A stretch of 64,000 bases of DNA from Escherichia coli (GTDB lineage: Bacteria; Pseudomonadota; Gammaproteobacteria; Enterobacterales; Enterobacteriaceae): NCBI RefSeq assembly GCF_016026235.1, contig NZ_CP065613.1, one strand, 5' to 3'. Of this stretch, positions 46,038-46,275 are shown piece after piece. A program made the position numbers and the translations under genes. Position 1 is the first letter of the stretch, and each line of letters begins with the position of its first letter. The notes below the pieces were generated by a model. The model was not told the origin of the DNA. It made no database searches and saw only the letters and a program-made list of their open reading frames with translations.

Positions 46038-46275
46038 GTAGGCCGGATAAGGCGTTCACGCCGCATCCGGCATCCGAGCACCATTGCCTGATGCGACGCT
46101 TACGCGTCTTATCAGGCCTACAAACCTGTGCCTGAACCGTAGGCCGGATAAGGCGTTCACGCCGCATCCGGCATCCGAGTACCATTGCCTGATGCGACGC
46201 TTACGCGTCTTATCAGGCCTACAAACCTGAGCCTGAACCGTAGGCCGGATAAGGCGTTTACGCCGCATCCGGCAG
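46038..46275. repeat. BIME/REP cluster: about 103 bp unit tandemly repeated 2.3 times
   Basis: Two near-identical copies of GTAGGCCGGATAAGGCGTTCACGCCGCATCCGGCA...GCCTGATGCGACGCTTACGCGTCTTATCAGGCCTACAAACCTG plus a partial third. Confidence 0.85.

Follow-up and report, generated by a model that had tools for sequence, protein, structure and literature searches.

Most of the spacer that separates ybaQ from copA, two convergent genes, is taken up by a repeat array that is a textbook BIME-2. The array lies in a stretch of Escherichia coli DNA of 64,000 nucleotides (hereafter the window) and comprises five REPs. We consider it highly probable that this BIME-2 gains and loses whole units through in-register misalignment; by analogy, its most likely role would be that of a dispensable set of 3'-end hairpins combined with a gyrase site.

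The flanking genes were delimited by their open reading frames and by the RefSeq annotation of matching genomes. On the + strand, ybaQ (45674-46015, stop codon 46013-46015) encodes a HigA-like antitoxin or DNA-binding regulator, and its K-12 counterpart is annotated in RefSeq as b0483 with a length of 342 nt. On the - strand, copA (46331-48835) encodes a Cu+ exporting P-type ATPase. The array is extragenic, being situated between the stop of ybaQ at 46015 and that of copA at 46331, and occupies most of the 315-bp spacer. As an aside, the HigA-like antitoxin gene ybaQ is an orphan; immediately upstream of it, Nissle 1917 carries a RelE/ParE toxin gene with a frameshift.

The first-pass annotation had described a tandemly duplicated BIME unit of about 103 bp at this position, present in two nearly identical copies with a partial third. 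The duplication is borne out, with Y and Z2 REPs alternating between short linkers, and so are the count of copies, the coordinates and the flanking genes that it named; the length of the unit requires correction, as both Tandem Repeats Finder and direct comparison of the units give a period of 101 bp. Tandem Repeats Finder placed the repeat at 46037-46274 (period 101, 2.4 copies, 97% matches, score 455), and a repeat search resolved 101-nt units at 46037-46137 and 46138-46238 that are 98% identical, plus a third partial copy. Base by base, the two full units differ at just two positions, 46079/46180 (C/T) and 46129/46230 (T/A). The third copy consists of a Y REP, which departs from the second Y REP at a single position, 46158/46259 (C/T). 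An exact direct repeat at a lag of 101 starts at 46080 and extends for 49 nt, the maximum for the window at lags of 20-300, where ten shuffles gave 11-13 nt. The tandem repeat is far above chance expectation.

Across 46038-46273 the array reads Y-S-Z2-l-Y-S-Z2-l-Y, giving five REP hairpins separated by S linkers of 14 nt and l linkers of 17 nt. On the + strand it is preceded by a left junction of 22 nt (46016-46037, GGCCAAAACATCGCTTCATCTC) that is the same in every array-bearing allele. The first REP, Y1 (46038-46071, 34 nt), carries its GTAG foot on the + strand, matches the Y consensus and folds as DNA into a hairpin of -12.1 kcal/mol with the GTAG unpaired. Comparison of the units places S linker 1 (46072-46085, + strand, 14 nt, ATCCGAGCACCATT) next to it as a head-to-head spacer, followed by Z2a (46086-46121, 36 nt), a consensus match with its GTAG foot on the - strand and a hairpin of -11.3 kcal/mol, whose loop is TTAC where the consensus Z2 loop is TGGC. 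By the same comparison, l linker 1 (46122-46138, + strand, 17 nt, AAACCTGTGCCTGAACC) forms a tail-to-tail spacer that leads into the second unit. There, Y2 (46139-46172, + strand) and Z2b (46187-46222, - strand) were recognized by consensus match and folding. Between them lies S linker 2 (46173-46186, + strand, ATCCGAGTACCATT), in which the T at 46180 is common only to FDAARGOS_943 among the alleles examined. Beyond Z2b, l linker 2 (46223-46239, + strand, AAACCTGAGCCTGAACC) has an A at 46230 that corresponds to unit 3 of FDAARGOS_943. The array closes with Y3 (46240-46273, + strand), the partial third copy, which emerged from the repeat search and from folding.

After the padding introduced by the fuzzy search had been trimmed, the Y REPs showed 0-1 mismatches to their consensus and the Z2 REPs two, which lie in the loop. 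The GTAG is on the + strand in all Y REPs and on the - strand in the Z2 REPs, so that orientation strictly alternates. All five REPs form imperfect DNA hairpins of -11.3 to -12.1 kcal/mol in which the GTAG foot is unpaired (z -3.5 to -5.1). A pattern scan of the spacer (46016-46330) detected no Z1 REP, no L linker or L motif and no IHF core (WATCAANNNNTTR). The element is classed as a BIME-2 because its Y and Z2 REPs alternate in orientation, its linkers are short and Z1, L and the IHF core are missing; a BIME-1 identity was rejected on the same three absences.

The remainder of the spacer contains a copA-proximal hairpin outside the repeat (46287-46321), predicted by RNA folding of the - strand and kept in all alleles, including the 57-bp allele that has no REP. 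RNA of the spacer folds far better than its shuffles on both strands (z = -7.9), and simple scans found neither promoter-like nor intrinsic-terminator-like sites inside it. Open reading frames of 40-97 aa cross the array. A coding role for them was rejected, given that they are REP sequence and that indels of 101 bp shift every frame; 101 not being a multiple of 3, the alleles described below would shift any reading frame that passed through the array.

Copy number was compared in two systematic 'spread' samples, together 118 chromosomes out of 5,426 complete E. coli genomes; since the sampled genomes are skewed to clinical lineages, the allele counts given here are not population frequencies. 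Far from being invariant, the number of units varies between strains from 0 to 11 REPs. The spacer measures 57, 113, 214, 315, 416 or 618 bp, corresponding to 0, 1, 3, 5, 7 and 11 REPs, and the lengths of the array alleles step by exactly 101 bp. The empty 57-bp form (28 of 118) is found in EPEC E2348/69 and Nissle 1917, and the 113-bp form with one Y REP (27 of 118) in 2020S05-013-18. Three REPs in 214 bp occur in 23 of the 118, including O157:H7 F3113, 2018-05-2CC and ECNB21-M121, and five REPs in 315 bp in 22, the allele shared by K-12, JX21CE8 and the window. Longer alleles are represented by seven REPs in 416 bp (3 of 118; example strains SCZE5, BL21-derived BLK9, AH02 and FDAARGOS_943) and eleven REPs in 618 bp (2 of 118; example strains W21 and H2). 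In the remaining 13 chromosomes (about 11%) ybaQ is absent. A search of the whole collection agrees with the sample counts: at a coverage of at least 80%, 3,346 genomes matched a 315-bp query and 2,255 a 618-bp query.

The array of K-12 MG1655 (NC_000913.3, 508560-508874) agrees with that of the window in position, in its five REPs, in its junctions and in the 315-bp length of the spacer; it departs from it at a few single positions, which lie in units 1 and 2 and in the flank next to copA. The K-12 RefSeq record carries no annotated repeat feature at the ybaQ-copA locus. The lineage of the window is distinct from K-12, its closest relative being FDAARGOS_943.

The amplification had also been described as recent and local, and these two attributes fared differently. 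A local origin is upheld: units are 98% identical within the array and 78-84% identical to those of the BIME-2 elements located at 38.9 and 60.4 kb in the window. Moreover, all alleles at the ybaQ-copA site have in common a private Z2 loop, TTAC, together with the same S and l linkers. Recency specific to this genome is not upheld, because the K-12 array has the same length, the array is present in other Escherichia and the comparison with FDAARGOS_943 suggests a loss. Whole units separate otherwise similar loci elsewhere in the species. JX21CE8 has two identical units and ECNB21-M121 one, and the protein accessions of YbaP, YbaQ and CopA are the same in both. The allele of BL21-derived BLK9 and of SCZE5 is equal to the K-12 allele with the addition of a perfect copy of unit 2.

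The direction of the latest change in the lineage of the window can be read from FDAARGOS_943, which is 99.93-99.95% identical over the whole 64-kb window (about 39 substitutions). The flanks of its array are identical to those of the window (396/396 and 660/660), and between them it has three full units against the window's two. Unit 2 of the window is a chimera, its 5' part being that of FDAARGOS_943 unit 2 and its 3' part that of FDAARGOS_943 unit 3. The 5' markers, GGATAAGG and the T in the S linker, are those of unit 2 in FDAARGOS_943, and the 3' marker, the A in the l linker, is that of its unit 3; the point of exchange falls somewhere in an 80-nt stretch that is identical between the two units. 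From this mosaic, the latest event in the window lineage was probably an in-register contraction from seven REPs to five. Parsimony favors contraction because an in-register loss of 101 bp needs no extra substitution. A gain is less parsimonious: 202 bp would have had to acquire two further substitutions, with divergence at about 6 per 10,000 sites. Direct repeats of 101 bp would be expected to misalign in register, by replication slippage or unequal sister-strand exchange, so that the array grows or shrinks by whole units. The REP-associated transposase TnpA-REP may contribute to this gain and loss.

The element itself has a longer history at this position. In an exact-pattern scan of GTDB representatives, a 25-mer spanning the right junction was found in three other Escherichia species: E. 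whittamii, which has half a Y, a Z2 and a Y and no ybaQ; Escherichia sp. E1V33, with three REPs; and Escherichia sp. MOD1-EC7003, with one. In all three, the junctions match E. coli alleles. On this comparative evidence the array is old at the ybaQ-copA site, because the same site is occupied in three other Escherichia species, and the number of units is what fluctuates. A 27-mer from the S linker had no match among the GTDB representatives in an exact-pattern scan, though it is present in K-12; the E. coli representative in GTDB is evidently a strain without the array.

A second REP array after ybbP had been reported by the same annotation, and it too is real, at 60303-60601 on the + strand. 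Tandem Repeats Finder, consensus matches and Rfam resolve it as Z1-L-Y-S-Z2-l-Y-S-Z2-l-Y, with six REPs. It is a composite, in which a BIME-1-like head (Z1-L-Y) is followed by a BIME-2 tail of two Y-Z2 units of 100-101 bp. An IHF core (60342) and a match to the Rfam family ES036/CssrF (60324-60366) are located in the L linker, and the first pair thereby has the features of a BIME-1, namely Y, Z1 and an L linker with an IHF core. The units of this array are 91% identical to each other, and it also varies in length among E. coli genomes.

Several other features of the window may be recorded here. An Rfam match to AgrB (61049-61137, 53.6 bits) lies between ybbP and mnmH, where it adjoins a type I toxin gene resembling dinQ. 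Directly after ybbP the K-12 sequence departs from that of the window, and the ybbP-mnmH segment is for that reason strain-variable. Two smaller REP clusters are present: a Y plus Z1 pair at 27417-27514, which is BIME-1-like though a simple scan did not find an IHF core, and a single Y plus Z2 unit at 38901-38990, which scores 75 bits against Rfam naRNA4. Further matches above the Rfam gathering score are sroB (ChiX) at 44660-44743, the DnaX frameshift element at 30814-30878 and the SRP RNA at 13914-14010, all of which are expected in this region of the E. coli chromosome.

It had been proposed, in addition, that such arrays are hotspots for IS insertion and recombination. For REPs in general this agrees with the literature, in which they are targets of IS1397 and IS621 and serve as recombination junctions (PMC1525189, PMC3333891, PMC10589994). 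At the present array no IS was seen: neither the allele lengths nor the representative sequences from the 118 sampled chromosomes indicate one within it. In the ybaQ-less haplotypes of XDL and E. whittamii, one end of the deletion is inside the first Y REP. A separate arrangement is seen in SB0258h1 and GN25, where an unrelated GC-rich and hairpin-rich segment of 428 bp (L009 2571-2998, L010 2566-2993) replaces ybaQ and the BIME between ybaP and copA. Elsewhere in the window, amtB is interrupted by a 1.3-kb IS4-like element (9275-10563; ISEc60 family by RefSeq name, with a DDE_Tnp_1 transposase). The window and FDAARGOS_943 do not differ in any other IS, and the site of this insertion is not in a REP. 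In FDAARGOS_943 the amtB site is empty, and 38 places elsewhere in the chromosome match the ISEc60-family element.

By analogy with REPs that have been studied experimentally, the array would most likely serve as a gyrase site and as a group of 3'-end hairpins, both of them dispensable. When transcription enters from either flank, these hairpins would act as a bidirectional 3'-end structure devoid of a U-tract, impeding 3' exonucleases and partly stopping read-through. As DNA, the Y REPs would provide preferred sites of gyrase cleavage. REPs have been reported to stabilize upstream mRNA and attenuate read-through; where they separate convergent genes, both genes tend to be more highly expressed, and nearly 40% of such REPs are located inside bidirectional terminators known from earlier work (bioRxiv 10.64898/2026.03.23.713779). 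BIME-2, and mainly their Y REPs, are enriched for gyrase cleavage, which does not depend on transcription (PMC6379681). It has likewise been described that the number of tandem BIMEs differs between strains and that units are conserved within a locus (PMC3333891). The Topo-seq supplements of PMC6379681 have no entry for gyrase cleavage sites at copA or ybaQ, neither gene is mentioned in the 2026 REP preprint (bioRxiv 10.64898/2026.03.23.713779), and a literature search returned no paper linking ybaQ, copA and REP. About a quarter of the sampled genomes have no REP at the site, and most of the ybaQ-less genomes examined are also devoid of an intact array. Hence, with about a quarter of genomes lacking any REP and a further 11% lacking ybaQ, any role at this site is dispensable and may be nil.

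Pure neutrality, in which the array has no function at the locus and persists and fluctuates by mutation pressure alone, is a serious possibility, albeit one that we place on the unlikely side. It would account for the coexistence of alleles of 0 to 11 REPs at appreciable frequency, for whole phylogroup-type haplotypes without the array (EPEC E2348/69, Nissle 1917) and for point differences between units that affect not just stems but also linkers and loops. Retention of the element at the site in several Escherichia species, however, speaks against it, as do the published genome-wide associations of convergent-gene REPs with higher expression and of BIME-2 with gyrase cleavage. At the opposite extreme, the number of REPs might act as a heritable and quickly mutable dial on the expression of copA, of ybaQ or of both, such that the series from 0 to 11 REPs would represent tuning and not drift. 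Changes in REP number would then alter 3'-end protection and convergent read-through, and we judge this reading to be distinctly improbable. The means by which units come and go may also be conceived otherwise, with the tyrosine transposase TnpA-REP/RAYT driving the changes by cleavage at linkers or REPs and strand transfer, in place of homology-driven slippage. TnpA-REP cleaves and recombines BIMEs in vitro, models for the addition of one BIME unit exist (PMC3333891) and the GTAG foot that it recognizes is present on every REP of the array. Nevertheless, for the in-register exchange between the window and FDAARGOS_943, ordinary misalignment of 101-bp repeats suffices without an enzyme, and a mobilome study found no circular BIME intermediates; a transposase as the driver is, in our estimation, unlikely.

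A different kind of function would follow if the units encoded small RNAs of the naRNA4 type that bound HU and contributed to condensing the nucleoid, as was proposed for REP325 (PMC4550694). The two units do match Rfam RF02564 (naRNA4) on the + strand, with 87.1 bits at 46041-46118 and 86.2 bits at 46142-46219 against a gathering score of 59.5, and they exceed that score on the - strand as well (64.3 and 62.4 bits). The model is in effect the Y-S-Z2 unit, and since it picks up three further BIME-2 units of the window, its matches here do no more than repeat the BIME-2 assignment. A simple scan of the spacer detected no promoter-like site, and the array is missing or of another length in most genomes. 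Furthermore, the 2026 preprint, which includes S. Adhya, an author of the original study, reports that nucleoid compaction was unaffected, that no stable HU-RNA-DNA complex formed and that REP325 RNA amounts to about 1-2 copies per cell (bioRxiv 10.64898/2026.03.23.713779). The naRNA4 matches re-describe the Y-Z2 unit and are not a gene call, and we consider small RNA genes here very improbable. Chance similarity or an assembly artefact, finally, has next to no probability and is excluded by the 49-nt lag-101 repeat, against the much shorter repeats of the shuffles, and by the recurrence of the architecture in thousands of independent complete genomes. We therefore retain the reading of a BIME-2 that varies by whole units and probably serves as dispensable 3'-end hairpins with a gyrase site.

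In itself the array is of little importance. The natural series of 0, 1, 3, 5, 7 and 11 REPs, which includes two near-isogenic strains one unit apart, is however usable for testing a recent proposal, in which REPs between convergent genes are tunable 3'-UTR regulators. In addition, where Rfam reports naRNA4 in an enterobacterial genome, the proper reading is 'BIME-2 unit'; such a match is not evidence for an sRNA gene.

Taken together, these findings place the ybaQ-copA array among elements of an already known kind. Descriptions of REP and BIME arrays go back to the 1980s-90s, their variation in copy number between strains has been published and the present array occurs in K-12. The closest likeness is to BIME-2 of Gilson, Bachellier and Hofnung (summarized in PMC3333891): alternating Y and Z2 REPs with short S and flanking linkers, in extragenic tandem units of about 100 bp that are conserved within a locus and strain-variable in number, as they are here. 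Nothing essential sets the array apart from that class, its own details being the TTAC loop of Z2 and the sequences of its linkers. With BIME-1 (Y-L-Z1 with an IHF site) it shares the Y REP and the extragenic position, and lacks Z1, the L linker and the IHF core. With REPIN-RAYT systems, in which a domesticated IS200-like transposase mobilizes REP doublets, it has in common inverted pairs of GTAG-footed REPs, long hairpins and a changing copy number. No RAYT (tnpA-REP) gene occurs within the 64-kb window, and unlike REPINs, the ybaQ-copA array changes by tandem gain and loss at one locus and not by dispersal to new loci. REP325/naRNA4 (RF02564, between yjdM and yjdN) shares the Y-S-Z2 type of unit and its tandem organization; whereas REP325 is made up of six units, is flanked by tandem genes of an operon and comes with experimental data, the ybaQ-copA array has two units and one REP, lies between convergent genes and is described from its sequence.
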